This document shows, piece by piece, positions 494-63,463 of a stretch of DNA of 64,000 nucleotides (position 1 is the first letter of the stretch; the number at the start of each line of letters is the position of its first letter). The stretch comes from a virus. Lineage: Duplodnaviria > Heunggongvirae > Uroviricota > Caudoviricetes. The stretch is from positions 109,858 through 173,857 of the IMG/VR virus record IMGVR_UViG_3300028048_001412; one strand, given 5' to 3'. The position numbers were made by a program, and so were the translations under genes. A model generated the notes under the pieces. It made no database searches. It saw only the letters and a list, made by a program, of their open reading frames with translations, and was not told where the DNA came from.

Positions 494-506
494 GTATAAT
501 ATAAAT
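494..506 (+). promoter_or_regulatory. GTATAATATAAAT phage promoter-like motif
   Basis: One instance of a motif recurring at least 13 times upstream of + strand genes. Confidence 0.4.
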
Positions 507-545
507 GGAAACACATATCAAAAAACAAAGGAGAATTGAAAAATA

Positions 546-1277
546 ATGATTAAGGAATGTAAAAACTGTTGGTATTTTACAAAATGTCAACAAAAAGACA
601 AAATGGAAACTGTATGTCTAGAATATGAACATACTTTAAAAGGATTTAAGAATTCTAATATTCCTCCTGTTTTATGGAGTAGTAGATCAATCAAAATAGA
701 TCCTAACAATAAAAAACATCAAGAATTAAAAGCATTAGTTAGTGATATGAATGAACTTTACAATAATAATAGAAATATTCTCCTTTATACTCATAATCAA
801 TACGGAGATAATTTAAATGGTTGGATGATTAAAACTCTTCAAAATTATATCTTTGCTTTTAGAAAATATCAATTCAATAATGAGAACGAAAATAGTGTAT
901 TTTATATAGATGCAGGTAAATTTAAAGAGATATGTCAATTACAAGTAGATAATAAAGAATTATTTTTATCTACTATAAATAAAATGCAAGGTTGTGAATT
1001 ATTAGGAATAGACAACATAGATAAGTTAAAAGGATTAAAGAATTTTAACTTTCAAGAGAAATTAGTAAATATATTAGAATATAGACAATACAGAAAACAT
1101 AAATCTAATATATTTACTTCACATATTCCTCCTTCATTATTAGATGCTAAAAATAATGATGAATGGAATTCATGGATAAATTATTTAACTAGATTTATTC
1201 TTAAAGATGGTATAAATGGACAATATGAAATTGAAGAAGATGGTGAAAATAGTTATAATGCAGGAGGTCAAGAATAA
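546..1277 (+). CDS. Hypothetical protein; stop overlaps the helicase start (TAATG), possible helicase-associated or loader protein
   Basis: 243-aa ORF with an AAGGAG RBS. Translational coupling to the DnaB-like gene. No recognisable motifs. Confidence 0.45.
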   Translation: MIKECKNCWYFTKCQQKDKMETVCLEYEHTLKGFKNSNIPPVLWSSRSIKIDPNNKKHQELKALVSDMNELYNNNRNILLYTHNQYGDNLNGWMIKTLQNYIFAFRKYQFNNENENSVFYIDAGKFKEICQLQVDNKELFLSTINKMQGCELLGIDNIDKLKGLKNFNFQEKLVNILEYRQYRKHKSNIFTSHIPPSLLDAKNNDEWNSWINYLTRFILKDGINGQYEIEEDGENSYNAGGQE

Positions 1278-2731
1278 TGAGTGAGATAAGAACAGAAAGA
1301 AATAATTCTGAATTAAAAATTCTTACTAAAATTATAAAAGATAAAGATTATAATATTCTTTCTGAAAATAATTTAACAAAGAATGATTTTAAAGATTATT
1401 TTGTTAAAGAAGGCCAGAAATTATATTTAATTTCAGATATAGTAGATTATATTGACTCTTATTATAAAACCTCTTCTCAAGTTCCAGACGAAACTACTAT
1501 TAAAACTAAATTTCCATTACTTGAATTAAATAATGATGATTATTCTAGTGAAAATAAAACATTTATAGATAATTTGAAGAAATTAAATAAAGATGATGAT
1601 TTAATAAATGCAATGACTCAAGCTAATAGAATTCATCAAACTAAAGGTGCAAGAGATGCTATTAGTTTTCTTCAAGGAGAATTGGAAAAGTTAGAAGGTA
1701 GAGGTTCTGAAGTTAAAGGATATGACTTAATTCAAAATGTAGATGACAGAATTAATGAATATGAAGAATTATTAAAAAATCCAAATAAAGCATTTGTAAC
1801 TACTGGATTAAAAGAATTAGATAATTGCATTAAAGGTTGGTTAAGAGATGAAGAATTAGTTCTTATTCAAGGTAGATCTGGTCAATCTAAAACATTCTTC
1901 TTATTAAAGTTTTTATGGGAAGCATTTGCTAGAGGAGAAAATGTTTTATTATTTGAACCAGAAATGTCTTCTAAAGTTATTGGATATAGATTAGACGTAT
2001 TAGCAGATGATAATCATGAGATATCTAATTTTTCTTTATTAAGAGGTGAAAGATTTATAGATGCTAATAAATATAAAGCTTGTTGTGCTAGATTAAAAGA
2101 ACATAAGAATCATTTCTATTATTTATGTCCTGATGATTTTGAAGATGGTTTAACTGTTTCTCAATTAAAAGCTTGGTGTAAAAAGAATAAAATTACTATA
2201 GTGGGAATAGATGGTATTGAAATTCCTGATATTATAGATGAAAGAAAAGGTTTCAAGGACGAAGAACACCTTCAGTTAACACATATAGCCGCTGATCTTC
2301 TTAGGATGTCTAAAACTTTAAAAGTTCCTGTTATTGTTACTACTCAAGCTAAAAGAACTGATAAGAAAGAAGAGTTAAGTATTAATACTATTGGCTCTTC
2401 CTACGGCATGGCGAGAAAATGCACCATCATGATTACAATTAAGAAAGAAGATAGAGAAGTAGAAATAAGAATTGAAAAGAGTAGAAATAGTACTGATAAT
2501 CAAGTTCTTAATTACAAGGTTGATCTCGATAAAGGTATATTTGAATGGGATGGAATGCCTACAATAGATGAACAAACAAATCAATCTATAAATAATAGAG
2601 AGGCTCAACCTATAACAGACGTAGATAAGGATAAGTCAGGAATAACAGAAGAGAATATAAAATTTACAGACGAGAATGGCAAACCTTACGGAGAAGATGT
2701 CTTTCTAGATGGAGGAAAAGGATTAGAATAA
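1277..2731 (+). CDS. DnaB-like replicative DNA helicase
   Basis: Walker A GRSGQSKT, and the RecA-fold C-terminal domain motif VPVIVTTQAKR (compare DnaB SQLNR). 484 aa. Confidence 0.7.
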   Translation: MSEIRTERNNSELKILTKIIKDKDYNILSENNLTKNDFKDYFVKEGQKLYLISDIVDYIDSYYKTSSQVPDETTIKTKFPLLELNNDDYSSENKTFIDNLKKLNKDDDLINAMTQANRIHQTKGARDAISFLQGELEKLEGRGSEVKGYDLIQNVDDRINEYEELLKNPNKAFVTTGLKELDNCIKGWLRDEELVLIQGRSGQSKTFFLLKFLWEAFARGENVLLFEPEMSSKVIGYRLDVLADDNHEISNFSLLRGERFIDANKYKACCARLKEHKNHFYYLCPDDFEDGLTVSQLKAWCKKNKITIVGIDGIEIPDIIDERKGFKDEEHLQLTHIAADLLRMSKTLKVPVIVTTQAKRTDKKEELSINTIGSSYGMARKCTIMITIKKEDREVEIRIEKSRNSTDNQVLNYKVDLDKGIFEWDGMPTIDEQTNQSINNREAQPITDVDKDKSGITEENIKFTDENGKPYGEDVFLDGGKGLE

Positions 2732-3804
2732 TGAAAATTACAGATAAATATATTTTAGAAGAAATGTTGGATTCTGTAAATTCTCCTAATGGAAGAAAAG
2801 CAATAGATACAATATTAAAAGGAAAACCATTACAATTATTCTATTGGAGTAGAAATGATGACGGAAAGAAAACTACTTATGAATTAATGGATGGACAACA
2901 AAGAACTCTATCTATTATGCAATTTTTAGACCATAAATTTAGTATTTTAGATGCAAATGGAAATACTCAATATGAAAATACTATATCAAAAGAAGATAAA
3001 GATAAGATTTTAGATTATGATTTATCAGTTTATATATGCGAAGGAACAGATCAAGAAAAATTAGAATGGTTTAATACAATAAATATAGCAGGATTAAAAT
3101 TAACAGATCAAGAATTAAGAAATGCAGTATATACAGGACCTTGGTTAACAGATGCGAAGTTACACTTTAGTAAACGAAATTGTGCCGGATATAAATTAAC
3201 TGAAAAATATTTTAACGGAGATCCAGCAAGACAAGAATTATTAGAGAAATTCTTAAAAGGAATAATAGAAAAAGAAGGATTAAAAACAATAGAAGATTAT
3301 ATGGCTCAACATAGAAATGATAAAGATGCAGATGAATTATGGCAATATGCAAACGATATAATCAATTGGATAAATAAAACTTTCACAAATTATAGAAAAA
3401 TAATGGATGGATTAGATTGGTGTCATTTATATAATAAATATCATCAAAATACATATAATACTCAAGATATAGAAAAAACAATAGATAAATTAATGAAAGA
3501 TGAAGATATAGAGAAAAAGAAAGGCATTTATGAATATGTATTAGATGATAAAAATCCATTCCGTGAGAAATATCTGAATTTGAGAGCCTTTCTAGATAAA
3601 GATCAACAAACAGCATATGAAAAACAAAAAGGAATATGTCCAATATGTGGAAAACATTTTAATAAAGATGAAATGGAAGCAGATCATATAATTCCTTGGA
3701 GTAAAGGAGGTTCAACAGATATAAATAACCTTCAAATGCTATGTAAATCTTGTAATAGACAAAAATCATCAGGAAATGCACCTAAAACTACTAAAAAGAA
3801 ATAA
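2731..3804 (+). CDS. DUF262 (ParB/Srx-like, DGQQR) + DUF1524/HNH nuclease fusion, GmrSD-like type IV restriction-like protein
   Basis: N-terminal DGQQRTLSI motif. C-terminal EADHIIPWSKGGSTDINNLQMLCKSCNRQKS HNH motif. Start overlaps the helicase stop (TAATG). Confidence 0.7.
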   Translation: MKITDKYILEEMLDSVNSPNGRKAIDTILKGKPLQLFYWSRNDDGKKTTYELMDGQQRTLSIMQFLDHKFSILDANGNTQYENTISKEDKDKILDYDLSVYICEGTDQEKLEWFNTINIAGLKLTDQELRNAVYTGPWLTDAKLHFSKRNCAGYKLTEKYFNGDPARQELLEKFLKGIIEKEGLKTIEDYMAQHRNDKDADELWQYANDIINWINKTFTNYRKIMDGLDWCHLYNKYHQNTYNTQDIEKTIDKLMKDEDIEKKKGIYEYVLDDKNPFREKYLNLRAFLDKDQQTAYEKQKGICPICGKHFNKDEMEADHIIPWSKGGSTDINNLQMLCKSCNRQKSSGNAPKTTKKK

Positions 3805-3829
3805 CTCCAATAAATTTATCATTTTTAAA

Positions 3830-3841
3830 GTATAATATAAT
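3830..3841 (+). promoter_or_regulatory. GTATAATATAAT motif 3 nt before the primase ATG
   Basis: Motif instance. No SD between the motif and the ATG at 3845. Confidence 0.35.
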
Positions 3842-3844
3842 AAG

Positions 3845-4813: not shown

Positions 4814-4830
4814 ATTTTTATAAAAAATAG

Positions 4831-4842
4831 GTATAATATAAT
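4831..4842 (+). promoter_or_regulatory. GTATAATATAAT motif upstream of HD-domain gene
   Basis: Motif instance, followed by an AAGGAG RBS and the ATG at 4898. Confidence 0.4.
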
Positions 4843-4897
4843 TATATAAAAGATCTGGGTAAAAATAGCCAGGGAAACAAATAAGGAGAAAATATCA

Positions 4898-5527: not shown

Positions 5528-5939
5528 AAATTAGAAGTTCAATGAACTACCATTAACCTAAAGGTATAATGGCTTCCGTTAAATAGTTCATTAGACTCAG
5601 TTTTGAGAAATCTTAACTACGTTAGAAAAATCATAACACCTTCGATTACCGGACTAGATTGAAGCTCTGTTGAATATTTTTAAGTTAGGTCGGAGTAAGA
5701 AAAGCCTTGTGAAATATTTGTAAAAAGTTTTTCTAACGTTGTCGAAGTCAAGTAGGATTTTTGATTTGGTAACAGAATCAAAATACTCATTAAGGTTTTA
5801 AGTCTTGAACCTGCTTGCAGCAAAAATCAAGACTATTTCAAAAATTATCTTTCAATTCATCTATTTGTCTAAAGACTAAATAGTTTTCTTGAAAGAAAAA
5901 ATATAAAAAATTGTATTCTAAAAAGGAGAAAAAACAGTT
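5528..5939 (+). other. 412-nt non-coding region, GC-richer than surroundings, multiple nested inverted repeats; candidate structured RNA / regulatory leader / origin
   Basis: No ORF. Hairpins include CCATTAACCTAAAGGTATAATGG, AGTCTTGA...TCAAGACT and AACGTTAGAAAA...TTTTCTAACGTT. The first 40 nt are shared with 56991-57030. Confidence 0.4.
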
Positions 5940-6597: not shown

Positions 6598-7980
6598 TTG
6601 AAAATTAATGATGAATATATTATTAAAATATTTACTAGAAAAGATAATAGAATAGATAGCCATAAATGTAATGATAAATGGTTGAATGAAAATATAGAAA
6701 TCAAAAAATATTTAGAATCTCGATTTGATTATTTCAATGGAAAATATTCAGATGTAATAAATCTTATAAAAAATAAAGTTAAAGAATGGCCTAAATGCCC
6801 GATTTGTAAAGAATATTTAAATCATCCTGAAAATAAGCATTGTTCTTATGCTTGCGAACAAAAAGATCCTTTAGTTAATGATAAAAAGAAAAATACTTAT
6901 TTAAATAATTATGGTGTAGAACATCCTTTAAAATCAAAAGAAATAAAGAAAAAAATAAAACAGACTAATTTGCAAAAATATGGAGTAGAAAATCCTTCTC
7001 AAAACGAAGAAATTAAAGAGAAGAAAAGACAAACTAGTTTAAAAAATTATGGAGTTGATAATCCATTTAAATCTGAAGATATTAAAGAAAAAATAAAAGA
7101 AATAAATTTACAAAGATATGGATTTGAAAATGTCTTTCAAAATGAACAAATAAGACAAAAATATAAAAGCACATGTAAAGAAAAATACGGTGTAGAAAAT
7201 CCATCTCAATCTGAAAAAATAAAGAAAAAGAAAGAAAATACTAATTTAAAAAACATAGGATTCAAAAATCCATTACAATCAGAAGAAATAAAGAAAAAAG
7301 TAAAAAATACTAACTTACAAAAATACGGTGTAGAAAATCCATCTCAATTGGAAGAAATTAAGAAGAAAAAAGAAGATTCTTGTCTGAAACATTATGGAGT
7401 AAAGAGTCCATTACAATCGGAAGAAGTAAAAGAGAAAAGTAAAAAAACATGTCTTAAAAAATATGGAGTTGAAGTAGCAGCTAAATCAGAAATAGTAAAA
7501 GAGAAATTATCAAAAACTCTTTCAACTATGGAATCAAAAGAAAAACAATATAATACCAAAAAGAAAAATAATTCCTTTAATACTTCAAAACCCGAAGAAG
7601 AAATATATGAAAAATTATGTAAACAATTAGGAAAAAATAATATTTTAAGAAATTATAATAAAGATTCTAGATATCCGTTTATGGTGGATTTCTACATTAA
7701 ATCAAAAGATCTATTCATTGAATGTAATTTTAACTGGACACATGGTGAACATTGGTTTAATGAAAACTCTAAAAGCGATTTAAAAATTTCACAAAAATGG
7801 AACGAAAAATCTAAAGATTCAGATTTTTATAAAATAGCATTAAAAGTATGGACAGTAAAAGATGTAGAAAAACGAGATACTGCCAATAAAAACGGATTAA
7901 ATTACATAGTATTTTGGAAAGAATCTGATTATGAAAAGTGGATTAGTAAAGGATGTCCAAAGAAATTTCAAAATAAATAG
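6598..7980 (+). CDS. Putative homing endonuclease (family A): N-terminal Cys/His zinc finger, nine tandem ~25-aa YGVENPxQSEEIKKK repeats, C-terminal Vsr/DUF559-like nuclease; TTG start
   Basis: N-terminus KINDEYIIKIF shared with 17541 and 25338. CPICKEYLNHPENKHCSYAC zinc finger. Repeats from aa ~98-305. C-terminus DFYIKSKDLFIECNFNWTHGEHWF. Confidence 0.65.
   Translation: MKINDEYIIKIFTRKDNRIDSHKCNDKWLNENIEIKKYLESRFDYFNGKYSDVINLIKNKVKEWPKCPICKEYLNHPENKHCSYACEQKDPLVNDKKKNTYLNNYGVEHPLKSKEIKKKIKQTNLQKYGVENPSQNEEIKEKKRQTSLKNYGVDNPFKSEDIKEKIKEINLQRYGFENVFQNEQIRQKYKSTCKEKYGVENPSQSEKIKKKKENTNLKNIGFKNPLQSEEIKKKVKNTNLQKYGVENPSQLEEIKKKKEDSCLKHYGVKSPLQSEEVKEKSKKTCLKKYGVEVAAKSEIVKEKLSKTLSTMESKEKQYNTKKKNNSFNTSKPEEEIYEKLCKQLGKNNILRNYNKDSRYPFMVDFYIKSKDLFIECNFNWTHGEHWFNENSKSDLKISQKWNEKSKDSDFYKIALKVWTVKDVEKRDTANKNGLNYIVFWKESDYEKWISKGCPKKFQNK
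6889..7520 (+). repeat. Nine tandem ~75-nt coding repeats (TxLxKYGVENPxQSEEIKKKxKx)
   Basis: Periodic repeats are visible at both the protein and nucleotide level inside 6598..7980. Confidence 0.7.
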
Positions 7981-7991
7981 GGATAAAATAA

Positions 7992-8885: not shown

Positions 8886-8886
8886 G

Positions 8887-8899
8887 GTATAATATAAAT
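8887..8899 (+). promoter_or_regulatory. GTATAATATAAAT motif immediately abutting the polymerase ATG
   Basis: Motif ends at 8899 and the ATG is at 8900. Confidence 0.35.
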
Positions 8900-16967: not shown

Positions 16968-16979
16968 GTATAATATAAT
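16968..16979 (+). promoter_or_regulatory. GTATAATATAAT motif
   Basis: Motif instance upstream of 17008. Confidence 0.4.
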
Positions 16980-17007
16980 TATAAATTATTTTTAAAGGAA
17001 ACAAATT

Positions 17008-17540: not shown

Positions 17541-18503
17541 GTGAATATTAATGATGAATATATATTATCTTTAGATATATTTGATACTAAAGGAAGACTT
17601 AAAGCAATATCATTTGAAAAAATACTTGAGAACAATTCTGAAATTAAAGAATATCTTAAAAATAGATATAATGATAAATTTGTAGATTATAAAACCGCTT
17701 TATGGAGAATTAGAAATAATATAGATGAATGGCCTAAATGTCCAACTTGTGGAAAATTATTAGATAATTTAGAACATAAACATTGTTCTCCAAGATGTGC
17801 TTCATTAGATCCGGAAGTGCAAAAGAAAAATGAAGAAACTAATTTAAAATTATATGGTGTTAGAAATGTATTTTGTTTAGAATCAGAACATAAAAAAGCA
17901 AAGAAAGAATGGGTAAAATCAATAGTTAAGAAATATGGTTCATTAAAGAATTTCTATAAAATACGTTCAGATTTAGGAAATAAAACGATTAAAGAAAAAA
18001 TAGAAGAAGATGAACATTTTTGGGATAAAAGAAATGAAAAGAAAAAAGAAACTATAGATTCTATATTAAAGAATGATCCTGATTGGTATAAAAGATTAAA
18101 AGAGAAAGAGATTGAAACTAAAAAGAAAAATAATTCTTTAAATGCTTCGAAAGAAGAAGATAGAATATATGAAAAATTATTAAATATATTTAACAAAGAT
18201 GATATTATAAGAGAATATTCTGAAAAAAGATATCCATTTCATTGCGACTTTTATATTAAATCAAAGGATTTATTCATTGAATGTAATTTTCATTGGACTC
18301 ATGGCTTTCATTGGTTTGATAAAAATAATAAATCTGATTTGGAAATAGTACAAAAATGGAAAGATAAAAATACTAAATTCTATGATATCGCAATAGAAGT
18401 TTGGACTAAGCGTGATATACTAAAACGAGATACTGCATTAAAAAATAAATTGAATTATTTGGTATTTTGGAACACAAAAGAATTTAAAAATTACAGTTTT
18501 TAA
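17541..18503 (+). CDS. Putative homing endonuclease (family A, short form with ~2 degenerate repeats); GTG start
   Basis: N-terminus NINDEYI. CPTCGKLLDNLEHKHCSPRC zinc finger. C-terminus RYPFHCDFYIKSKDLFIECNFHWTHGFHWF. Confidence 0.6.
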   Translation: MNINDEYILSLDIFDTKGRLKAISFEKILENNSEIKEYLKNRYNDKFVDYKTALWRIRNNIDEWPKCPTCGKLLDNLEHKHCSPRCASLDPEVQKKNEETNLKLYGVRNVFCLESEHKKAKKEWVKSIVKKYGSLKNFYKIRSDLGNKTIKEKIEEDEHFWDKRNEKKKETIDSILKNDPDWYKRLKEKEIETKKKNNSLNASKEEDRIYEKLLNIFNKDDIIREYSEKRYPFHCDFYIKSKDLFIECNFHWTHGFHWFDKNNKSDLEIVQKWKDKNTKFYDIAIEVWTKRDILKRDTALKNKLNYLVFWNTKEFKNYSF

Positions 18504-18504: not shown

Positions 18505-18515
18505 GTATAATATAT
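18505..18515 (+). promoter_or_regulatory. GTATAATATAT motif
   Basis: Motif instance upstream of the recA-like gene. Confidence 0.35.
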
Positions 18516-18611
18516 TATAAAACAATAAATATATTTCACAATTCAACAACATTTTAGGCATCATTAAAAATTGAATTGATTTAAAAAATTTGTTTAAAGG
18601 AGAAATTAACA

Positions 18612-19757
18612 ATGGGATTAACAAAAGAAGAAATCGCTAAAAAAATGGCGAAGATGCAAGAGAAGATGGCTAAATCATATGGCGATACTGTAGTTAAAGG
18701 AACTGAAGTTGAAAGAGTATCTTTTTTTCCTAGCGGTATTGCAAGTATAGATAGAGCATTAGGGGGAGGTTGGGCTGTCGGTAGATTATGTTCAATATAT
18801 GGTTATCCATCAGCTGGAAAAACAACTTTCTTATTGCAAAGTATAGCAAATATGCAAAAAATTGATCCAAGAGCTTGTTTATATGCAGATGCAGAAGCAT
18901 CATTGGATTTAGATTATGCTCAAAGATTAGGAGTAGATTTAGATAGACTTATAGTAGTTCAAGCTGATACTGCAGAAAATATGACTACTATTCTTCGTAA
19001 TTATTGTTTAGAAGAATATGAAGAAAAAGGAAAGACTATAAAAAATGATATGTTTGGTTGTATATCATTAGCAGTACTAGATTCTACTAATGCTTTAGTT
19101 CCAGCCGCTGACTATGGAAAAGAAGTTAATAGAACAGGTGGAACAATGGCAGGAACAGCAGGATTATTAAGTAACTGGGTTAAACAAATGTATGGTCCGT
19201 TAAGAAAATCAGGAATGACTCTAATATGTATAGAACAAGTAAGAGATAATGTAGGTGAATTATATGGTCCAAAAATTAAAGTCGGAAACGGTTGGGGTGT
19301 TGCATTTGCCGCTTCACAAAGACTTGAATTAGTTAAAGGCCAAAATATAATGAATAAAGATGATTGGGCTGGACAACATATTAAATTCAAAGTTGTTAAA
19401 AATAAATGTGCAGTTCCTCAAATTAAAGGTGAAACTATTATGTCACCAGGAAGAGGATTTGATGCTGAAGCCGATGAAGCTTACTTCTTACAAGAATCTG
19501 GATTATTTGTAAGACTTAATAATATAAAATGGTCTTATACAACTAATCAAGGAGAAGTAATTGAAATAAAAGGAAAAGATAATATAATACCTACTCTTAA
19601 AGAAAAAGGATTATATGATGAAGCTGTAGCTAATGCAAAAAGATTAACTGTAGAAAGAGCAAATAAAGGTCCTAAAGGTTCAGAAGAATTAGATTATGCT
19701 AATGCTGAAGGAGAAGAAGGTGCTAAAAATGCTCCGGATGAAGAACCAGTAGTATAA
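18612..19757 (+). CDS. RecA/UvsX-like recombinase
   Basis: SIDRALGGGWAVGRLCSIYGYPSAGKTTFLLQ is near-canonical for the RecA N-terminal core and Walker A. Confidence 0.85.
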   Translation: MGLTKEEIAKKMAKMQEKMAKSYGDTVVKGTEVERVSFFPSGIASIDRALGGGWAVGRLCSIYGYPSAGKTTFLLQSIANMQKIDPRACLYADAEASLDLDYAQRLGVDLDRLIVVQADTAENMTTILRNYCLEEYEEKGKTIKNDMFGCISLAVLDSTNALVPAADYGKEVNRTGGTMAGTAGLLSNWVKQMYGPLRKSGMTLICIEQVRDNVGELYGPKIKVGNGWGVAFAASQRLELVKGQNIMNKDDWAGQHIKFKVVKNKCAVPQIKGETIMSPGRGFDAEADEAYFLQESGLFVRLNNIKWSYTTNQGEVIEIKGKDNIIPTLKEKGLYDEAVANAKRLTVERANKGPKGSEELDYANAEGEEGAKNAPDEEPVV

Positions 19758-19885
19758 TTTAAATAATTGAACTATTTGACGGAATAGGTAAAAATAATGA
19801 TTAAAATAATGGGTAAAATTAAATTAATTTAGAGCCGTCACTCTTCATTAATTGATTTTATCCATTTTTTAATAAATGCTAAAAT

Positions 19886-20380: not shown

Positions 20381-20402
20381 TTGATTTATATTTCAAAATA
20401 TA

Positions 20403-20414
20403 GTATAATATAAT
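20403..20414 (+). promoter_or_regulatory. GTATAATATAAT motif
   Basis: Motif instance upstream of queE. Confidence 0.4.
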
Positions 20415-20443
20415 TATAAAATAAATAGGAAGGAAATTAAAAT

Positions 20444-21197: not shown

Positions 21198-22085
21198 ATG
21201 ATGAATATAAATCAAGAATTATTAGAATTTATTAAAGACAATTATCAGAAGAAATTCGGAAGTTTAGATACATTTGAAGAAAATTATAAATTATATTGTT
21301 CTTTACCTTCTTTTAAAGCAAGTGAAAATTTTCATGAAGTATTTGGACAATTAAATGTAATAAATTCAGAAGATCCAAATGCTTTAGATAAAGAGAGTGA
21401 ATTTGTAAATAGAGAAGAAAAATTAGGAGATAATACTAAATATACTGATTATTTAGATTGTCAAAAAGAATTAAAACCTGAAATACATTGGATAATGAGA
21501 TCTGTCGCTCAATTCTATATGATAAAAGTATTTGATGCATTAAAAATAGATCAAAAAGATCCAAATATAGCAATAAATGCTTTAGGTAAAGGAACTCCAG
21601 GCAGAATTGTTAAAATGTGGAGTGGCGCTAATCCAGAAGATACATCAGAATTATTATCAGGAAGGTGGAATAAAGAACCTGCGCTATCAGTATTTCCAAA
21701 TGATGGTTCAACTACAGGAGGAGAAATAATCACTACTCCTATTACTAAAGAAGTAGATGTAGTTGCTGTTTGTAGTCACCATTTTCTTCCATTTTCAACA
21801 TTAGAACCAAATGCAAAAGCAATAATTACATATATACCACAAAAGCATTTAATTGGAATATCTAAATTGCAAAGATTTACTAAATGGGCTAGTGCAAGAG
21901 GATGGTTACAAGAAGATTTAACAACTTATTTAGGAACAACAATTAAAAGAATAAGTGAATCTGAAGATGTAAAAGTAGAACTGATCAATTTAGTTCATGG
22001 ATGTGAAAAGTTTAGAGGTGCTTATTCTAAAAATGGTAATTTAACAACTTATTATAAATCAGGAGTGTTCAAAGATGTCAAGTAA
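21198..22085 (+). CDS. folE: GTP cyclohydrolase I with ~100-aa N-terminal extension
   Basis: GTPGRIVKMW, VCSHHFLPF (CEHH zinc motif), TYIPQKHLIGISKLQRF, HGCEKFRG. Confidence 0.85.
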   Translation: MMNINQELLEFIKDNYQKKFGSLDTFEENYKLYCSLPSFKASENFHEVFGQLNVINSEDPNALDKESEFVNREEKLGDNTKYTDYLDCQKELKPEIHWIMRSVAQFYMIKVFDALKIDQKDPNIAINALGKGTPGRIVKMWSGANPEDTSELLSGRWNKEPALSVFPNDGSTTGGEIITTPITKEVDVVAVCSHHFLPFSTLEPNAKAIITYIPQKHLIGISKLQRFTKWASARGWLQEDLTTYLGTTIKRISESEDVKVELINLVHGCEKFRGAYSKNGNLTTYYKSGVFKDVK

Positions 22086-22959
22086 AGAATATTTTTCTAA
22101 AGAGTATCAAAAAGATCTTTATGAATATATGGCTGATAGAACGTGGCTTAAAAAAGGTAAAGAAATGCATTTACCTGAAAAAAAATTAAAACGTAAGTTT
22201 GATATGATAAATTTTGAAAAATATCCTGGTGTAAATGAGGAGAGAATTTGGAATGTTAAAGAAAATACTAAAGAACAATATACTAATCCTAAATTCTTAC
22301 AAAATTATAAAGCTGCAAATAAAGAACAATTAAAATTATTAAAAAAAGCTGATAAAAAAGATATTCTATTATTATCTCTATGTGCAAATAATAAACCTTA
22401 TTCTGATAATGCTACTATAAGATGTGTAAAAAACATTGCTGATAAAAATAATATGGATTATGCTATATTATCAAAAACGGTTTGGTTTATAGAACCTTTT
22501 GATTTTTCAGTTAGACCTCCCGCATTATGTTATAATGAACCTCATGATTGGTTCTATTATAGTATAGCATTTAAGAAATATTGTGATAAAAAGAAATTAA
22601 AAGAAAAATTCGAAGAATTTAATAATAGTTGGTTTCCTGGATTTGAAATGCCTCAATATATGGTAGAAGAAATATCTAAACAATATAAAGCAATAGTGAT
22701 TTTTCATAATGGTGGGGCTAATGAATATTTAAGAAGATTTGGGAGTGAACATTATAAGCCATTTGAACCTAGTTGTCCAGTTTATAATATAGATACTTCT
22801 AAAGAAATATATATGAAAGAATTAAGGCCTATATTTCATTCAGGTGGATTATGCCATCAAAGATATTATACCAGTAAAAAAGCAACTAATGAAATAGCAA
22901 ATATTTGTAAAAATATAAGAAAAGATGTTATTCCTCAAAAAAATCTTATGAATAAGTAA
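22075..22959 (+). CDS. Hypothetical protein embedded in 7-deazaguanine cluster (overlaps folE by 11 nt)
   Basis: 294-aa ORF with no recognisable motif. Translationally coupled to folE. Confidence 0.5.
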   Translation: MSSKEYFSKEYQKDLYEYMADRTWLKKGKEMHLPEKKLKRKFDMINFEKYPGVNEERIWNVKENTKEQYTNPKFLQNYKAANKEQLKLLKKADKKDILLLSLCANNKPYSDNATIRCVKNIADKNNMDYAILSKTVWFIEPFDFSVRPPALCYNEPHDWFYYSIAFKKYCDKKKLKEKFEEFNNSWFPGFEMPQYMVEEISKQYKAIVIFHNGGANEYLRRFGSEHYKPFEPSCPVYNIDTSKEIYMKELRPIFHSGGLCHQRYYTSKKATNEIANICKNIRKDVIPQKNLMNK

Positions 22960-23676: not shown

Positions 23677-23688
23677 GTATAATATAAT
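23677..23688 (+). promoter_or_regulatory. GTATAATATAAT motif
   Basis: Motif instance upstream of the mazG-like gene. Confidence 0.4.
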
Positions 23689-23719
23689 TAGAGAATATTT
23701 TCAGGAGGTTTTAGTTAAT

Positions 23720-25337: not shown

Positions 25338-26462
25338 TTGAAAATTAATGATAAATACATCTTGAAAATTTTTATTGGAGAGAATCAAAGAGTTAATGGT
25401 TGGAGATGTTCTTATAATTGGATAAATGAAAATCCAGAAATCAAAGAATATCTAGAGACTAGATTTAATTATTTCAATGGAAAATACGGAGATGTAGTTA
25501 GATTAATAAGAGATGGATTTGATGAATGGCCTAAATGTAAAACATGTAATGAATTTTTAAAAGAACCATTTACTCAAGATAAACAACCTTCATATCATAT
25601 TTATTGCAGCAATAAATGTAAGAATATAAATGAAGAAAAGAAACAGAAATCTATAAATACTTGTTTGGAAAAATACGGAACTCCAGTTTCTTCTCAATCC
25701 GAAATAGTTAAAGAAAAAGAGAGAAATACTATAAATTCTAGAACTGAAGAAGAGAAAAATAAAATAACTTCTAGAGCTAGAAAAACTTATATTAAAAAAT
25801 ATGGAGTAAATTGGATTTCAAAATCAAAGGAATTTAAAGATAAATTCAAAGAGACTTGGGATAATAAATCAGAAGAAGAATTACAAGACATAAAAAATAA
25901 AAAAGAAAATACTTGCTTAGAAAAATACGGCGTGAAATATTATTTTGAAACAGAAGAATTTCAAGAAAAATCAAAACAAACTATTCTAGATAAATACGGA
26001 GTAGAGTACACGCATCAATGCAAAGAAATATTAGATAAAGTTAATGAAACTAAACATAAAAATGGAACATTTAATACATCGAGGCCTGAAGAAGAATTTT
26101 ATAAATATCTTTTAAATAATTTTTCGGAAAATGATGTAAAAAGACAATATTATAAAGATTCTAGATATCCATTCAGATGTGATTTCTATATTAAATCTTT
26201 GGATTTATTTATAGAGTTAAATCTTTCTTGGGTTCATGGTGGACATTGGTTTAATAAAAATTCAAAAGAAGATTTAAAAATATTAGATAAATGGAAAAAT
26301 AAAAATACAGATTATTATAATGCGGCTATAAATACATGGACGAAGAGAGATTTATTAAAAAAGAAAACAGCAATAAAAAATAAGATTAATTATCTTGTTT
26401 TCTGGACTGAAAAAGAAATAAATAATTTAATAAAAGGAGAAAATAAATTATGTATAGTTTAA
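25338..26462 (+). CDS. Putative homing endonuclease (family A, ~4 degenerate repeats); TTG start; inserted between queC and queD
   Basis: N-terminus KINDKYILKIF. CKTCNEFL zinc finger. C-terminus RYPFRCDFYIKSLDLFIELNLSWVHGGHWF. Confidence 0.6.
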   Translation: MKINDKYILKIFIGENQRVNGWRCSYNWINENPEIKEYLETRFNYFNGKYGDVVRLIRDGFDEWPKCKTCNEFLKEPFTQDKQPSYHIYCSNKCKNINEEKKQKSINTCLEKYGTPVSSQSEIVKEKERNTINSRTEEEKNKITSRARKTYIKKYGVNWISKSKEFKDKFKETWDNKSEEELQDIKNKKENTCLEKYGVKYYFETEEFQEKSKQTILDKYGVEYTHQCKEILDKVNETKHKNGTFNTSRPEEEFYKYLLNNFSENDVKRQYYKDSRYPFRCDFYIKSLDLFIELNLSWVHGGHWFNKNSKEDLKILDKWKNKNTDYYNAAINTWTKRDLLKKKTAIKNKINYLVFWTEKEINNLIKGENKLCIV

Positions 26463-28291: not shown

Positions 28292-28303
28292 GTATAATAT
28301 TAT
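28292..28303 (+). promoter_or_regulatory. GTATAATATTAT motif
   Basis: Motif instance upstream of the mre11-like gene. Confidence 0.35.
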
Positions 28304-28334
28304 ATATAAAGTATTTTAATGAGAGGAAACTTAT

Positions 28335-33564: not shown

Positions 33565-33597
33565 TTATCAAGTAAAATTTAATATTTATAAGTAAAA

Positions 33598-33630
33598 GCA
33601 AGGTATTTTTCATTAATATCTTGCTTTTTT
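33598..33630 (+). terminator. Rho-independent terminator
   Basis: GCAAGGTAT/ATATCTTGC hairpin + TTTTTT. Confidence 0.6.
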
Positions 33631-33666
33631 CATTTTATTTAAAGAAATATTTTTTAAAAATTACCC

Positions 33667-33695
33667 TTGATTTTTTGTAATAAATATCATATAAT
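33667..33695 (+). promoter_or_regulatory. Sigma70/SigA-like promoter (-35 TTGATT, 17-nt spacer, -10 TATAAT), followed by GTATAATATAAAT motif at 33700
   Basis: Consensus spacing. A 45-nt block is nearly identical to 63268-63312. Confidence 0.6.
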
Positions 33696-33749
33696 ATTAG
33701 TATAATATAAATATAATATTATCATATTACAAGAAAGGAGATAATTATT

Positions 33750-35604: not shown

Positions 35605-35623
35605 TAAAATAGGAGAAATAAAA

Positions 35624-35636
35624 GTATAATATAAAT
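35624..35636 (+). promoter_or_regulatory. GTATAATATAAAT motif abutting ATG of small ORF
   Basis: Motif instance. The ATG is at 35637. Confidence 0.35.
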
Positions 35637-35795
35637 ATGGATAATAGAGAGAAAAAAATCAAACAATGTGAATTTTGTACTTCTTTTCTAAATATAGATA
35701 AAGAAAAGAAAGATAGTATATGTACAAATCCAGAAAGTCCTTGTTATAATTGCTGGGTTAGTAGAACTCAAGAAGGATGTGAATGTTTTGAATAA
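35637..35795 (+). CDS. Small Cys-rich protein (52 aa), not in ORF track
   Basis: MDNREKKIKQCEFC...CYNCW...GCECFE. Has the same motif-ATG arrangement as the polymerase gene. Confidence 0.35.
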   Translation: MDNREKKIKQCEFCTSFLNIDKEKKDSICTNPESPCYNCWVSRTQEGCECFE

Positions 35796-35822
35796 ATTGT
35801 AAATAGGAGGATATTATATTTA

Positions 35823-36041
35823 ATGATAGGTGTTAAAACATTAAATAATTTCGGAGGAATCATAGTATTAGGAATAGATGAAGAAATTGTAGAATATTAC
35901 TATGATTTTGGCGGTGAAAATATATCTCCTATTTATAAACAGAAATTAGAATATGATGAAAATGGAAAACCTTATTTTGAAACTAAAGAAGGAAATCAAT
36001 ATTTAGATGAATTTATGACTTCTAATAAAGGAGATAAATAA
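35823..36041 (+). CDS. Hypothetical small protein
   Basis: 72-aa ORF, AGGAGG RBS. Confidence 0.4.
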   Translation: MIGVKTLNNFGGIIVLGIDEEIVEYYYDFGGENISPIYKQKLEYDENGKPYFETKEGNQYLDEFMTSNKGDK

Positions 36042-36239
36042 ATGGAAAAATGGATCATTTATAGAAATAATGGACATGATATAATAGGAAATGAAGATGT
36101 AGGATATCAAATAACAAATGATATAAAAAATGCACTTATTTTTCCAAATGAATCTTCAGCAAGAGATTATAAGAAATTTTATGATGAAGAATCTATAAAA
36201 TCAGGAAATGGAAAATGGATGGTAAAACAAATACAATGA
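36042..36239 (+). CDS. Hypothetical small protein
   Basis: 65-aa ORF. Confidence 0.35.
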   Translation: MEKWIIYRNNGHDIIGNEDVGYQITNDIKNALIFPNESSARDYKKFYDEESIKSGNGKWMVKQIQ

Positions 36240-40062: not shown

Positions 40063-40869
40063 ATGAATGATATAAAACAATATTGGAAAAATAAAGATAC
40101 TAAAGCACAAGAAGCCAAAGTTCATACAGAATTAATGGAAAAATTCAATAAAAAAGAGATTGAGAATTCAATAGAAGGAACTATTGAATATGAAGAACAT
40201 AAAAATATTGAATTAAATACTTCTATTTCTAATCAAATTCCAGAATTTATATTAGATGATATTGATTCTGTTTCTGCAATATTCAAATATAAAGAAGATG
40301 ATGTTAAAATGGCAGTATTAAATTTTGCATCATTTAAATTTGCAGGCGGAGGATTTATTAAAGGTTCTATTGCACAGGAAGAATGTTTATGTCATGAATC
40401 TTTTTTATATAATGTATTATCTAAAAAAGAAGATTTTTATGCAAAAAATAGAACTATATTAAATGATAGCCTTTATAAAAATAGAGGATTATATTCTCCA
40501 GATATTCAATTTAGTAGAAAGATAGAGGATAATAATATCATATGTAATTGCAATGTTATAACAGTTGCAGCTCCTAATAAAAGAGCATATTTACAACATA
40601 ATGAGAAAAGTAAAGAATTGGAAGAGATAAATAAAAGATATTTAGTTTCTAGATGTAATTTTGTACTTACTATTGCTAAACTTCATAATATTAAAACACT
40701 AATATTAGGTGCTTTTGGATGTGGAGTATTTAATCAAGATCCAGAAGAAGTAGCTTTAGCATTTAGAACATTATTAGAACAATACGATTATGGTGTAGAA
40801 AAAGTAATATTTGCTATTCCTAATAAAAATGATCCGAATTATCAAGGATTTTTTAAATATTTTAAGTAA
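40063..40869 (+). CDS. PARG-type macrodomain protein (DUF2263/TIGR02452-like poly/mono-ADP-ribose glycohydrolase)
   Basis: LNFASFKFAGGGFIKGSIAQEE matches the PARG catalytic signature GGG-X6-8-QEE. Confidence 0.55.
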   Translation: MNDIKQYWKNKDTKAQEAKVHTELMEKFNKKEIENSIEGTIEYEEHKNIELNTSISNQIPEFILDDIDSVSAIFKYKEDDVKMAVLNFASFKFAGGGFIKGSIAQEECLCHESFLYNVLSKKEDFYAKNRTILNDSLYKNRGLYSPDIQFSRKIEDNNIICNCNVITVAAPNKRAYLQHNEKSKELEEINKRYLVSRCNFVLTIAKLHNIKTLILGAFGCGVFNQDPEEVALAFRTLLEQYDYGVEKVIFAIPNKNDPNYQGFFKYFK

Positions 40870-40949
40870 AATAGATCTTTTAATATATTTTATATGAAAT
40901 TTCAAGAACTAAATATATAATATATTAATAGATAGGAGGATTACTCTGA

Positions 40950-42097: not shown

Positions 42098-42168
42098 ATT
42101 AATTATTGATTTTTCTCCTTAAGTATCTTATAATATTATAATAATATTTTTGAAAGGAGAAAATAAAA

Positions 42169-46369: not shown

Positions 46370-46381
46370 AGGTATAATATT
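46370..46381 (+). promoter_or_regulatory. GTATAATATTAT motif immediately upstream of tRNA-Ser
   Basis: The motif ends ~7 nt before the tRNA 5' end, consistent with a -10 element. Confidence 0.45.
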
Positions 46382-46387
46382 ATATAA

Positions 46388-56990: not shown

Positions 56991-57071
56991 TTGAACTACC
57001 ATTAATCTAAAGCTTAATGGTTTTATAGACTCAAAATATAAAAATATTTAAGAGATTTTGGAGGTATTAAA

Positions 57072-58296: not shown

Positions 58297-58830
58297 ATGA
58301 AAAATGTATTATCATTTGAATGGTTAACGAAAAAGAATATAAGTGAAATGGATTTAATCCGTAGATTATTATTAAAAAATTATAATCTAGTAGATTTAGA
58401 ACCAGAGATTTTAGATAGTGTAATTAGCGGAGAATGCAAACAATTCTACCCTATTATAGATTATGCTATAATTAAAGTAAATAATAAAAGTGTAGGTCTT
58501 ATTGGTCAATATAATTCATTTTTATTTAAAAATGATTTATGGTTAGGATGGGCTGGAATATTACCTGAATTTCATGATAAGAAAAAATCATATATGAAAA
58601 ATGCAATGAAATTATGGGAAGCATATGTAAAAAAGAAATATCCTAATATTGATCATTTAAGAGCATATATTTCTAAAAGCAAAGAAAAAGACGATTTAAT
58701 TTATCTAAAAGATTTAGGATATAAATTAGAAAAAGGAATGTATAAACATTATCAAGATGATGATATAATAATATTAAGTAAATGTTTAAAAGGAGAATAT
58801 AGACCTTGGACTAGAAAACCCGTTTGGTAA
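58297..58830 (+). CDS. Hypothetical protein (possible acetyltransferase-like)
   Basis: 177-aa ORF. Confidence 0.4.
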   Translation: MKNVLSFEWLTKKNISEMDLIRRLLLKNYNLVDLEPEILDSVISGECKQFYPIIDYAIIKVNNKSVGLIGQYNSFLFKNDLWLGWAGILPEFHDKKKSYMKNAMKLWEAYVKKKYPNIDHLRAYISKSKEKDDLIYLKDLGYKLEKGMYKHYQDDDIIILSKCLKGEYRPWTRKPVW

Positions 58831-58939
58831 AAATTTATTAATATATTTTATTTTGATTTTTCAGTATAAATAGTATAATAATTATAATATATAATATTAA
58901 AATAATATTAAGCAAATGTTTAAAAGGAGAATATAGTGA

Positions 58940-59473
58940 ATGAATAATTCGGGAGCAATAATGGCAGGAGTGTTAATATTTGTAGTTCTTATTGTTTTAT
59001 TTACAATTGTTTTTTCTATAATGTGTTTATGGAAAATATACGAAAAAGCAGGAGAACCAGGTTGGAAATGTTTAGTTCCTATTTATAATACTTGGACTTT
59101 ATATAAGTTTATCAAAATGCCAGTAGTTGTATTTTGGATAGCTTTAGCATCTAGTATATTACAAAATATATTTAGTTCTACTATAACTGTGAATGGAGAA
59201 ATTTATTATCAAAGTATAACTAGTTTAGGACCTGTTGGAACTATTTGTGCAATAATATCATTAATAATCTATGTAATGGTTAGTTATAAATTATCATTAG
59301 CTTTTGGTAAAGGAATAGGATATACTATACTTTTAATTTTTATAATTGGTTATCCTATGTTAGCATTTGGAAGTGCTCAATATCAATATAATTCAATAAA
59401 TGATAATGATTATGGAAATTCTCATTTTAATGATAATAACGATGATGAATTTCAAATGATAGATGAAAATTAA
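58940..59473 (+). CDS. Hypothetical multi-pass membrane protein
   Basis: Four hydrophobic helices. Acidic C-terminus. Confidence 0.45.
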   Translation: MNNSGAIMAGVLIFVVLIVLFTIVFSIMCLWKIYEKAGEPGWKCLVPIYNTWTLYKFIKMPVVVFWIALASSILQNIFSSTITVNGEIYYQSITSLGPVGTICAIISLIIYVMVSYKLSLAFGKGIGYTILLIFIIGYPMLAFGSAQYQYNSINDNDYGNSHFNDNNDDEFQMIDEN

Positions 59474-59605
59474 TATCAACAACCTAGTGGTTAAATACCA
59501 CAAGGTTTGTGAAAACAAACCTTACGTTGATTAGCTTTAATAACAGTTTGTGGGAAATGTCATTCACATAAAAATCATCAAAAAGGTGGAATTTTACATA
59601 AATGG

Positions 59606-60139
59606 ATGCAAAAGAAAAAGAAAGTAAAAACATATAAAGAACCAACATTTATGAATATCTTACAAAGTAGAATTATAAAAGAATACCCAAATGCAAGAAT
59701 AACTTATGGATATGAAACAGAAATTAAAAGAATAGAATTAGGATTAGAAAAAGAACATTATAACGACGCAATAGCCATAACAAATTTAGATAATATAAAA
59801 GAAAACTCAAATGAATTTTTATTTATAAAACAGTTTAGAAAGAAAAAGAGAAGTTTACACGAAGCAACTATACGAAAAGGAAGAAAAGAACCAAATAGAT
59901 CTCAAAAACGAAATTCAAAGAATACGGTGACGAATGGAATACATTATTTAGGAGATACAGTAAAAGTAGGAAATAAAATAGGATATGTAAGTGGTTTTTC
60001 AGGAAAACAGTTATATGTAAAAGATTTTGAAGATAATTACATAACAAAAGAAGGAAAGAAATATAAACAAATTGGAGAAAAAGAATGTCTAATAGTAAAA
60101 CACAACAACAATTGGATTTACCAAGCAATTCATCCTTAG
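59606..60139 (+). CDS. Hypothetical basic protein
   Basis: 177-aa ORF. Confidence 0.4.
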   Translation: MQKKKKVKTYKEPTFMNILQSRIIKEYPNARITYGYETEIKRIELGLEKEHYNDAIAITNLDNIKENSNEFLFIKQFRKKKRSLHEATIRKGRKEPNRSQKRNSKNTVTNGIHYLGDTVKVGNKIGYVSGFSGKQLYVKDFEDNYITKEGKKYKQIGEKECLIVKHNNNWIYQAIHP

Positions 60140-61352: not shown

Positions 61353-61397
61353 TGATAAAAAATAAATAAAATAAGAAATATAGGAGAATTAAAATAT

Positions 61398-61790: not shown

Positions 61791-61806
61791 TTTAAGGAGA
61801 GAACTA

Positions 61807-62547: not shown

Positions 62548-62661
62548 ATTTCATAATATATTTTATATGAATTTTTAAAAAATTTGGGTATAATATTAAA
62601 TATGATAAAAATGAGTAGATTAAATTCTACTTTGATTTAAAAATATAAAAAGGAAAAAGAA

Positions 62662-63132
62662 ATGTTAAGAACAAAGAGATTTCAAATAATTACATTATTA
62701 TTTATATTAACTATTAGTTTTAATAGTTTCTCTGCTACTGTTATTTCATCTGAACAAAAGAATAACATTTCTCCTGAAACTAATATTATAAATCAACAAT
62801 TACAACCTAGCCAAAATACTCAATTATCTACAATGCCAGAAGGTGGATTAAATGGTAACTTTACATATGGATTGAGAAGATTAGCGGTTATTTTAGCCAA
62901 AAATAAAGATTTCACTGTCGATTTTGTAGGTTATTTTAAAGAATCAGATGATAAATATAAAGTAATAATTTCATCATCAAACGCCTGGAGAAGTGGTAAT
63001 TGGAGAGTTGATATTTATCCGGCTTTATCTGAATATGAGAAGGTTCTCGATGGTTATCATTGTTGGTTTGGTTTCTATGATGAAAATAGACAAAGAATTG
63101 GTACTGCGCAAGCTGTAAAATTGAAAAGTTAA
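62662..63132 (+). CDS. Secreted hypothetical protein
   Basis: Signal peptide. Confidence 0.4.
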   Translation: MLRTKRFQIITLLFILTISFNSFSATVISSEQKNNISPETNIINQQLQPSQNTQLSTMPEGGLNGNFTYGLRRLAVILAKNKDFTVDFVGYFKESDDKYKVIISSSNAWRSGNWRVDIYPALSEYEKVLDGYHCWFGFYDENRQRIGTAQAVKLKS

Positions 63133-63170
63133 ATGATGTAGAAATATTTAACTTTATAGATAGATTTTAA

Positions 63171-63210
63171 ATAAGGACCAATTCTTTAATAGAAAAGGTC
63201 CTTATTTTTT
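63171..63210 (+). terminator. Rho-independent terminator
   Basis: ATAAGGACC/GGTCCTTAT hairpin + T-run. Confidence 0.65.
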
Positions 63211-63270
63211 ATGTAAAAATAGTTGAAAATATTGAGGAAAATTAATTTATAAAAAAATTTTAAAAAACCC

Positions 63271-63299
63271 TTGATTTTTTCTCAAAAATATCATATAAT
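63271..63299 (+). promoter_or_regulatory. Sigma70/SigA-like promoter (TTGATT-17-TATAAT) followed by GTATAATATTAT motif; drives tRNA cluster
   Basis: Duplicate of the 33667 promoter block. An A/T UP-like tract lies upstream. Confidence 0.55.
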
Positions 63300-63463
63300 A
63301 TTAGTATAATATTATTAAGGCAAAATAATATTAGATCTATTTAAAAAGTTTCTGCCATAGCTTCTTAAATAGATGCCATACTTACCTCCTTTAATTATAA
63401 ATAAAATGTTTGTGATTTAAGTAGGGGTGATTCGAGTATAGTTCAGTTGCCCCTATTTACTCG

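Follow-up and report, generated by a model that had tools for sequence, protein, structure and literature searches.

Which signals start transcription in the AT-rich genome of a large uncultured phage, and which RNA polymerase (RNAP) would read them? This question is raised by a stretch of 64,000 nucleotides (nt), referred to here as the window, which covers positions 109,858 to 173,857 of the IMG/VR virus record IMGVR_UViG_3300028048_001412 (Caudoviricetes). A preliminary description of this DNA had pointed to a short motif recurring ahead of at least 13 genes, read it as a phage-specific middle or late promoter, and proposed leaderless or very short-leader mRNAs where the motif abuts a start codon. 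Here, we analysed the motif in the window, which represents 23% of a genome of ~284 kb, and in 9 kb further downstream that were added from contig L125. The motif recurs ahead of about 15 genes for replication, nucleotide metabolism and tRNAs, and almost certainly marks a family of promoters, to judge from its sequence and placement.

Alignment of the sites gave the conserved unit R(−14) G(−13) TATAAT A(−6) T(−5) w A(−3). The information is concentrated between −14 and −3, with very little further upstream, which is partly because four copies begin exactly 2 nt beyond the TAA stop codon of the upstream open reading frame (ORF), so that their spacer and −35 region fall in coding sequence. All sites contain a perfect TATAAT, the −10 hexamer of sigma70-family promoters, and the 7th base after the hexamer is A in 11 of 17 sites. 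The 10-mer GTATAATATA occurs in 13 copies, on the plus strand only, against 1.12 expected. The shorter word GTATAAT was found 17 times in 4.2 kb of plus-strand intergenic DNA, 6 times in 59.8 kb of plus-strand coding DNA and not once on the minus strand of intergenic regions (Fisher odds ratio 40.6, p = 5e-16). Even when the expectation is drawn from the intergenic regions alone, with a first-order Markov model, 1.3 copies are predicted against the 17 seen, a frequency far above the AT-rich background. In an unbiased 7-mer screen for intergenic enrichment this word ranked first, above the Shine-Dalgarno (SD) word AAGGAGA. TATAAT without a preceding G was just 2.3-fold enriched, and thus the G matters. 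Of 27 intergenic gaps that are 40 nt or longer, 15 hold a copy with the G (G-type) and three more a plain TATAAT.

The recurrence noted in the preliminary description is thus real, but the 13-mer in which it had been expressed is not the conserved unit. Exact copies of this 13-mer number just four (494, 8887, 33700 and 35624), and with 2 mismatches allowed it is unenriched (37 against 29.4 expected). A generic sigma70 scan is likewise unenriched (162 against 149) and is uninformative in 25% GC DNA. Both figures would suit a chance product of a 25% GC genome. However, the core stands 12- to 40-fold above expectation, is confined to the plus strand within intergenic DNA, and is the top-ranked 7-mer; a chance origin is excluded. 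We also rejected a regulator-binding site, since the motif shows no palindrome and keeps a strict orientation, and an origin in a repeat or mobile element, because longer homology was found only in two tandem modules, in three class I promoters (described below) and in the pair of sites at 494 and 7981. A literature search for the strings GTATAATA and TATAATAT returned nothing specific.

The coordinates given earlier proved correct to within 2 nt, and at each of them a GTATAAT lies on the plus strand, inside an intergenic gap or on its border (the site placed at 46370 begins at 46372). The supposed variant at 42123 has to be reassigned: the letters there are GTATCTTATAAT, and the true hexamer (42129) is part of a TTGATT-17-TATAAT promoter. 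The G-type sites that stand outside the tandem modules, together with one variant, are the following:

494..506, plus strand: G-type core GTATAATATAAAT, 2 nt past the stop of a DUF7487 homing-endonuclease paralogue and 46 nt ahead of ORF 546-1277; the DnaB helicase gene comes next after this ORF
3830..3842, plus strand: G-type core GTATAATATAATA; the primase ATG (3845) comes 9 nt after the hexamer, with no SD (dG −0.8)
4831..4843, plus strand: G-type core ahead of the HD-domain gene at 4898
8887..8899, plus strand: G-type core GTATAATATAAAT, abutting the DNA polymerase ATG (8900), whose A lies 7 nt after the −10 hexamer
16968..16980, plus strand: G-type core, 2 nt past the stop of the upstream ORF and 34 nt ahead of ORF 17008
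18505..18517, plus strand: G-type core GTATAATATATTA, 2 nt past the stop of a homing-endonuclease paralogue and 101 nt ahead of the UvsX/RecA-like gene at 18612
20381..20415, plus strand: full promoter TTGATT-17-G TATAAT ATAATT, ahead of QueE (20444)
23677..23689, plus strand: G-type core with TGAATT at −34, 37 nt ahead of MazG (23720)
28292..28304, plus strand: G-type core GTATAATATTATA, 37 nt ahead of SbcD (28335)
35624..35636, plus strand: G-type core GTATAATATAAAT, abutting the ATG (35637) of a Cys-rich ORF of 52 amino acids (aa)
46372..46384, plus strand: G-type core GTATAATATTATA, whose −10 hexamer ends 10 nt ahead of tRNA-Ser (46388)
19752..19764, plus strand: variant GTATAATTTAAAT of uncertain promoter status, overlapping the stop of the RecA-like gene, 128 nt ahead of ORF 19886

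The promoter regions at 4831 and 20403 are 71% identical over 52 nt. The variant at 19752 was missing from the earlier inventory, as were several copies outside ordinary intergenic gaps. Full copies of GTATAATATA lie within ORFs at 8666 (as TGG TATAAT, 220 nt ahead of the polymerase gene), 23956 (within MazG, followed by an in-frame ATG) and 54673 (within a Suv3-like helicase gene), and it is possible that they are internal promoters. One more GTATAAT, at 5564 within a HEARO RNA, is probably unrelated to the promoter family.

Promoter anatomy and the genes served

For genes with a normal SD, the distance from the end of the hexamer to the start codon ranges from 34 to 137 nt and would leave a 5′ untranslated region of at least 27 nt. 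Four clear intrinsic terminators were found in the window, and in two cases a conserved 72-nt tandem module comes within ~40-70 nt after the terminator:

33594..33634, plus strand: intrinsic terminator with a 14-bp stem and a U run, closing the upstream unit just before the tandem promoter
33667..33717, plus strand: tandem module of TTGATT-17-TATAAT (33690), G TATAAT (33700) and TATAAT (33712) in 11-nt steps, ahead of ORF 33750
63175..63210, plus strand: intrinsic terminator preceding the second tandem promoter
63271..63316, plus strand: second tandem module, TTGATT-17-TATAAT-5-G TATAAT, heading an array of at least 21 tRNA genes

The tandem pairs proposed earlier (TTGATT-17-TATAAT-5-TATAAT) are real, and the two modules (33667 and 63271) share ~80% identity across 72 nt. 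In all, the motif behaves in the way expected of a promoter: it is strand-specific and intergenic, stands at sensible distances from genes and tRNAs, and follows terminators. Since the copy ahead of tRNA-Ser ends 10 nt before that gene, the signal is not translational. This copy, and the spread of start-codon distances from 7 to 137 nt, make the dual transcription and translation role suggested earlier unnecessary.

A role at the level of RNA, whether as a processing site for an endoribonuclease or as an AU-rich enhancer of translation in polycistronic transcripts, would suit a motif that is AU-rich, strand-specific and intergenic, and most G-type sites do lie within long co-directional arrays with no terminator upstream. 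We nevertheless regard it as very unlikely. The motif equals the −10 consensus; the −35-like element at the right spacing has no RNA-level rationale; copies right after terminators would be transcribed only from a start inside the motif; and the copies that abut a start codon leave nothing as leader, while the tRNA-Ser copy and the variable distances just mentioned argue the same way. For the tandem modules only, the later TATAAT boxes (33700/33712 and 63304) might be sigma-dependent promoter-proximal pause elements of the TTGATT-17-TATAAT promoter. Such pausing is caused at lambda PR' by a −10-like element in the initially transcribed region, and here the second hexamer would fall at about −1 to +5 of the transcript from the first promoter, the hexamers recur at 11-nt intervals, and the 72-nt module is kept at two unit-initial positions after terminators. 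On the other hand, G TATAAT AT stands alone at 13 other sites with no full promoter upstream, and no antiterminator is known here, so that we consider pausing improbable.

The description of the sites as lacking a −35 element is an overstatement, true of only about half of them. The site at 20403 has TTGATT at 17 bp. Moreover, 8 of 15 sites show the pattern T[GA]A[AT]T (TGATT, TGAAT, TAAAT) starting at −34 to −32, where its genome frequency predicts 0.84. The pattern is nearly absent at other offsets and implies spacers of 15-17; a Gibbs motif search was overall not above shuffled controls. TATAAT boxes with a good −35 (33690, 42129, 63294, 26890 and 40916) are without G at −13. The promoters thus either grade into one another or fall into two classes, those that have a −35 but not the G (class I) and G-type promoters with a degenerate −35, and the 20403 promoter connects the two. 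The remaining promoters are the following:

40892..40921, plus strand: class I-like promoter ATGAAA-16-TATAAT, with a shared upstream block
42107..42142, plus strand: class I promoter TTGATT-17-TATAAT with no G at −13, the site formerly listed as a variant at 42123
58854..58895, plus strand: promoter with TTGATT, G TATAAT and two more TATAAT, with the shared upstream block
62548..62600, plus strand: promoter with ATGAAT at about −35 and GGG TATAAT ATT, with the shared upstream block, ahead of ORF 62662

The block AATATATTTTATwTGAwTTT is common to three of these (40875-40922, 58833-58880 and 62548-62595), and may combine an UP-like element with a −35. Promoters with this block are distinct from the G-type sites of the replication module.

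The perfect −10 hexamer, the residual −35 at canonical spacing, the A at the canonical +1 and the hairpin-plus-U terminators, which fit a bacterial-type RNAP, point to a sigma70-family holoenzyme. We thus favour, with a probability of about 65%, sigma70-family promoters dominated by the −10 element and used by the host primary sigma factor, whether or not the phage assists. In this reading sigma region 2 would recognise the perfect TATAAT, the weak T(G/A)A(A/T)TT at about −33 would add little, and transcription is predicted to start ~7 nt past the hexamer. Host RNAP carrying the primary sigma is the most probable enzyme, and the phage may have remodelled sigma region 4 beforehand. The sequence directly shows the enrichment of the motif, its strandedness and placement, the −35-like element, the missing SD and the presence of the motif in close relatives, whereas the transcription starts at the sites, the polymerase and sigma factor used, the timing and the leaderless translation discussed below are inferred.

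The sites would serve as internal and unit-initial promoters in a co-directional gene array, ahead of genes for helicase, primase, DNA polymerase, recombinase, SbcCD, 7-deazaguanine synthesis, MazG and tRNAs. Since the genes downstream belong to replication, recombination, nucleotide or DNA modification and tRNA functions, we read the sites as early or middle promoters, not late ones. T4 middle promoters add internal starts in front of key genes, and the G-type sites within arrays would do the same here. The earlier analogy with the T4 late promoter TATAAATA, which depends on gp55, gp33 and gp45, finds no support here. A gp55-like late sigma coupled to the sliding clamp could be imagined, as both motifs are AT-rich single −10 elements with no −35, and three copies (8887, 33700 and 35624) happen to include TATAAATA. 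This word, however, is barely enriched in intergenic DNA (5 intergenic against 26 coding copies on the plus strand), the conserved unit is TATAAT with G before it, the downstream genes are not virion genes, and no gp55 or gp33 homologue was found in the window, which makes a T4-type late promoter highly improbable.

Start codons adjoining the motif

As described earlier, some copies of the motif adjoin an ATG. At 8887 (DNA polymerase) and 35624 (the 52-aa ORF) the 13-mer ends at the ATG, whose A is exactly the 7th base after the hexamer and is preceded by T. At 3830 (primase) two nt lie between the 13-mer and the ATG, which occupies the 9th-11th base after the hexamer. A further case was found just past the window, at L125:8692, where GTATAATATATAAT is directly followed by the ATG of an 88-aa ORF. 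The pairing of the three candidates in the window with the anti-SD sequence is weak (−0.8, −1.6 and −4.0 kcal/mol, against a median of −8.2) and among the weakest of 86 genes. The start methionine of the polymerase is kept in a 71%-identical homologue, which begins MNNFESF where the protein here begins MNEFTSF.

With an ATG 7-9 nt after the −10 hexamer and a weak or absent SD, leaderless mRNAs, or mRNAs with a leader of 1-2 nt, are plausible for DNA polymerase, primase and the 52-aa ORF, and the earlier proposal may stand for these three genes. The transcript would begin at the AUG or 1-2 nt before it and would be translated as a leaderless mRNA, with a predicted leader of 0-2 nt for primase; the 88-aa ORF beyond the window would complete this set. 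In the known leaderless mRNA of lambda cI from PRM, and in those of many actinobacterial and Deinococcus genes, a −10 box stands 6-7 nt ahead of the start codon. The candidates resemble them in the ATG at the predicted +1, T at −1, A at +1 and the missing SD, and differ in being a minority of 3-4 genes amid strong SDs that is not conserved in the closest relative. The in-frame internal ATG of MazG (23969) has the same geometry, which is probably incidental.

The polymerase that would read the sites

Several findings weigh against host sigma70-family promoters with leaderless replication genes. TG at −15/−14, the usual compensator for a weak −35, is present in 0 of 16 sites, and alternative registers giving a TGn extension were rejected because they destroy A−11 or fail to yield T−15 G−14. 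In the AT-rich clostridium C. difficile, TGNTATAAT is found at 245 mapped starts and leaderless mRNAs are rare (15 genes) (PMC7438776). Among gene-oriented intergenic TATAAT boxes, G at −13 occurs in 20% in bacteria (background 23%) against 49% in the phage (p = 0.003), although this comparison, with a bacterial set of 514 kb from 80 genomes of the clade with the nearest flotillins, has low power and may not cover the clade of the host. This suggests that the G−13 extension is a property of the phage lineage and not a general clostridial promoter trait, and its phage-specificity could be due to a phage factor. Of the ~284 kb, 64 kb plus a further 9 kb was read, and genes for a phage sigma or RNAP could sit elsewhere. 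As for the leaderless candidates, the polymerase gene of the closest relative is without the motif, is preceded by an AAGGA, and sits 2 nt past the upstream ORF or overlaps its stop; the arrangement is therefore not conserved, and the candidates could instead be translated from read-through polycistronic RNA.

The comparison with relatives bears on the same issue and agrees with the earlier view of the motif as phage-specific. Close relatives carry G TATAAT ATAT(A/T) in intergenic DNA. In L002, whose polymerase is 71% identical, GGG TATAAT ATATTATATAAAA stands ahead of an SD-led ORF, and in L128 and L129, whose flotillin is 75% identical, ATG TATAAT ATATAAG stands ahead of gyrB and AAGG TATAAT ATATTATAAC was also found. 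Near-identical copies of the 18505 core lie at L002:3196 and L128:20353. The motif is absent from the distant relatives L001 and L004-L006, with recombinase or polymerase 45-49% identical. IMG/VR scanned with a motif-only 16-mer gave single chance hits only, among the matches listed. JGI metagenomes, among which the contig of the phage itself is absent, were scanned with the 21-mer ATCATATAATATTAGTATAAT, taken from the tandem promoter, and yielded one orthologous locus in 21 copies and 4 singletons. This locus lies upstream of a MazG-like gene in a different, 25%-GC phage lineage from many gut metagenomes (contigs L131-L154, up to 290 kb, with one noisy 1.27-Mb long-read contig). The MazG of that lineage is unrelated to the MazG here, and the shared 21-mer is therefore probably a convergence on tandem TATAAT boxes. 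Two side observations concern single relatives. The polymerase homologue of L002 (L002:121-3147) has a ~390-aa C-terminal extension that is absent here, and in L005 (20.9 kb) TAACTAT, within ATAACTATATA, is intergenic in 8 of 11 plus-strand copies and may be the promoter motif of that phage.

Among known systems, the extended −10 class of sigma70/sigmaA promoters (TGnTATAAT, with 245 transcription start sites in C. difficile; PMC7438776) is alike in the TATAAT, the little or no −35, the predicted start 7 nt downstream and the AT-rich Firmicute setting. It differs in that TG is missing here and G at −13, R at −14 and A-T at −6/−5 are found instead. Phage middle promoters, such as those of T4 (MotA/AsiA) and of P23-45 (gp39/gp76), also keep the sigma70 −10 and dispense with the −35, lie within early units ahead of replication genes and coexist with −35/−10 promoters, sometimes in tandem. 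They differ in the MotA box, (a/t)(a/t)TGCTT(t/c)A centred at −30 in T4-type middle promoters, as no TGCTT was found within −48 to −21 at any site, and in their factors, as no AsiA, MotA or gp39 homologue was detected in the window.

The motif might instead be read by phage-encoded machinery and not by the unmodified host holoenzyme, which we consider a less likely alternative that nevertheless deserves attention. This machinery could be a virion or non-virion multisubunit RNAP as in phiKZ- or AR9-type jumbo phages, a phage-encoded sigma factor, or host sigmaA after region 4 has been appropriated or blocked as by T4 AsiA/MotA, with class I promoters early and G-type promoters middle. In Thermus phage P23-45, gp39 and gp76 reportedly remodel sigma region 4 so that extended −10 promoters are used. 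The jumbo size of the genome (284,018 bp) would suit this view, and published jumbo-phage early promoters share the anatomy. Where jumbo phages encode RNAPs, their early promoters contain an AT-rich element of ~10-13 nt centred on −10, that of AR9 being AAATATATATTAT-N6-G+1, and those that have no RNAP of their own usually carry genes for sigma factors (PMC7598289, PMC5312081). The element here likewise is an AT-rich unit of this length at −10 with a predicted start 6-7 nt downstream, and is detectable bioinformatically upstream of operons, although these traits are not exclusive to that family. The phage-specificity of G−13 relative to the candidate host clade, the lack of a TGn extension at the sites, the two visible classes, the clustering of G-type sites in the replication module and the position of the tandem class I plus G-type modules after terminators would fit as well. 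Against such machinery, a perfect sigma70 −10 consensus with a −35-like box at 15-17 bp in half of the sites is unexpected for phiKZ- or AR9-type RNAPs, and the replication proteins resemble those of ordinary Firmicute phages and are not phiKZ-like. Pfam and PHROGs searches of the window ORFs gave no homologue of an RNAP subunit (including split beta/beta' genes, which are hard to detect), sigma factor, AsiA, MotA or gp55, most small ORFs being matchless and the window being 23% of the genome.

A more specific version of a phage factor was also considered, in which the G-type sites are a lineage-specific promoter class by which a phage sigma, a sigma-remodelling factor or a phage polymerase tells phage from host DNA, possibly with a link to 7-deazaguanine and also with leaderless polymerase and primase expression. 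The single invariant G of the motif would then be a candidate modified base, and G-containing elements read in the duplex (−35, TG) would be disfavoured. A preQ0 gene set between 20444 and 26878, with a QueE-like radical SAM protein (20444), FolE (21198), QueC (24553) and QueD/PTPS (26450), suggests that the DNA of the phage contains modified G. Within the window no gene was recognised as coding for a DpdA transglycosylase, and ORF 22075-22959 is without any match. We find this version doubtful, and its link between 7-deazaguanine synthesis and promoter design is speculative, as nothing requires it.

Genome setting and implications

The window has a GC content of 25-26% throughout and a coding density of 93%, with every credible gene on the plus strand. 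The DNA polymerase and recombinase proteins are identical to those recorded on a 284,018-bp contig, which indicates that the source is an uncultured jumbo phage of ~284 kb. The window carries a replication and nucleotide-metabolism module that comprises a DnaB-type helicase, a GmrSD/HNH protein, primase, a single-stranded-DNA-binding protein and a family-B DNA polymerase. Also part of it are both gyrase subunits (B and A), a UvsX/RecA-like recombinase, a Cas4-like nuclease, a resolvase and SbcD/SbcC, along with MazG, two RNA ligases, a deoxynucleoside kinase, the Suv3-like helicase and, from the preQ0 pathway, FolE, QueD, QueE and QueC. A megablast of 12 kb against GenBank phages gave no match and hence no close relative there, and a search of GTDB genomes with the DNA polymerase for mis-binned relatives or prophages found none. 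The polymerase and gyrase are 33-47% identical to Firmicute phage proteins, the phage flotillin shares 55-62% identity with those of Lachnospiraceae from rumen and gut and of other Clostridia, and strong AAGGAG/GGAGG ribosome-binding sites precede nearly all genes. We therefore infer a low-GC Firmicute host, probably clostridial.

Four tRNA genes lie within the window and 21 in the following 9 kb. The array headed by the second tandem promoter holds at least 21 genes in ~4.6 kb (63464-64000 plus L125:4564-9121). Within it, TATAATAT stands only 3 nt ahead of tRNA-Val (L125:5182) and tRNA-Tyr (L125:6907), too close for the usual −10 geometry. The other tandem promoter, with its terminator at 33.6 kb, is immediately preceded by a gene for a 71-aa Cro/CI-type helix-turn-helix protein (33349-33564), and two different RNA ligase genes flank the 52-aa ORF (34615-37504).

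Four DUF7487/homing-endonuclease-like paralogues (1-492, 6598-7980, 17541-18503 and 25338-26462) are 61-77% identical in DNA over 124-300-nt repeat families; the second holds eight 69-nt tandem repeats (6814-7542) and the fourth sits between QueC and QueD. The 3′ flanks of the first two copies are homologous, with a perfect motif at 494 and a decayed one at 7981 (GGATAAAATAAAT). A full-length HEARO RNA (RF02033, IscB omega-RNA family; 5542-5757, plus strand, 96.4 bits) occupies the 412-nt gap between the HD-domain gene and the single-stranded-DNA-binding protein gene. No IscB-sized ORF lies next to it, and a fragment like its 5′ part recurs at 56991-57071. Three SPFH/Band7/flotillin-family genes are present in this one phage (31268-32740, 49754-50608 and 60198-61352), and its flotillin is that which matches the related phage contigs L128 and L129 at 75% identity. 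Three tandem paralogous 177-aa ORFs with a weak DUF5684 match lie at 58297-60139, two of them with 46-nt leaders that are 89% identical (58757 and 58891), and a PARG-like gene lies at 40063-40869.

A lineage-specific phage promoter consensus and leaderless phage transcripts are well-known kinds, and current understanding is not overturned by the sites described here. Their anatomy is mildly unusual in the G at −13, the absence of TG, the degenerate −35 and the A-T at −6/−5. It raises the question of whether large phages in which no RNAP genes are recognised shift, as infection proceeds, from promoters that need a −35 to promoters with a −10 only, and whether key replication genes are translated from leaderless mRNAs in a host where these are rare. 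The motif offers a compact, strong, −35-independent promoter consensus for AT-rich Firmicutes, and can serve to map the transcription units of an uncultured 284-kb phage that probably infects gut or rumen Clostridia.

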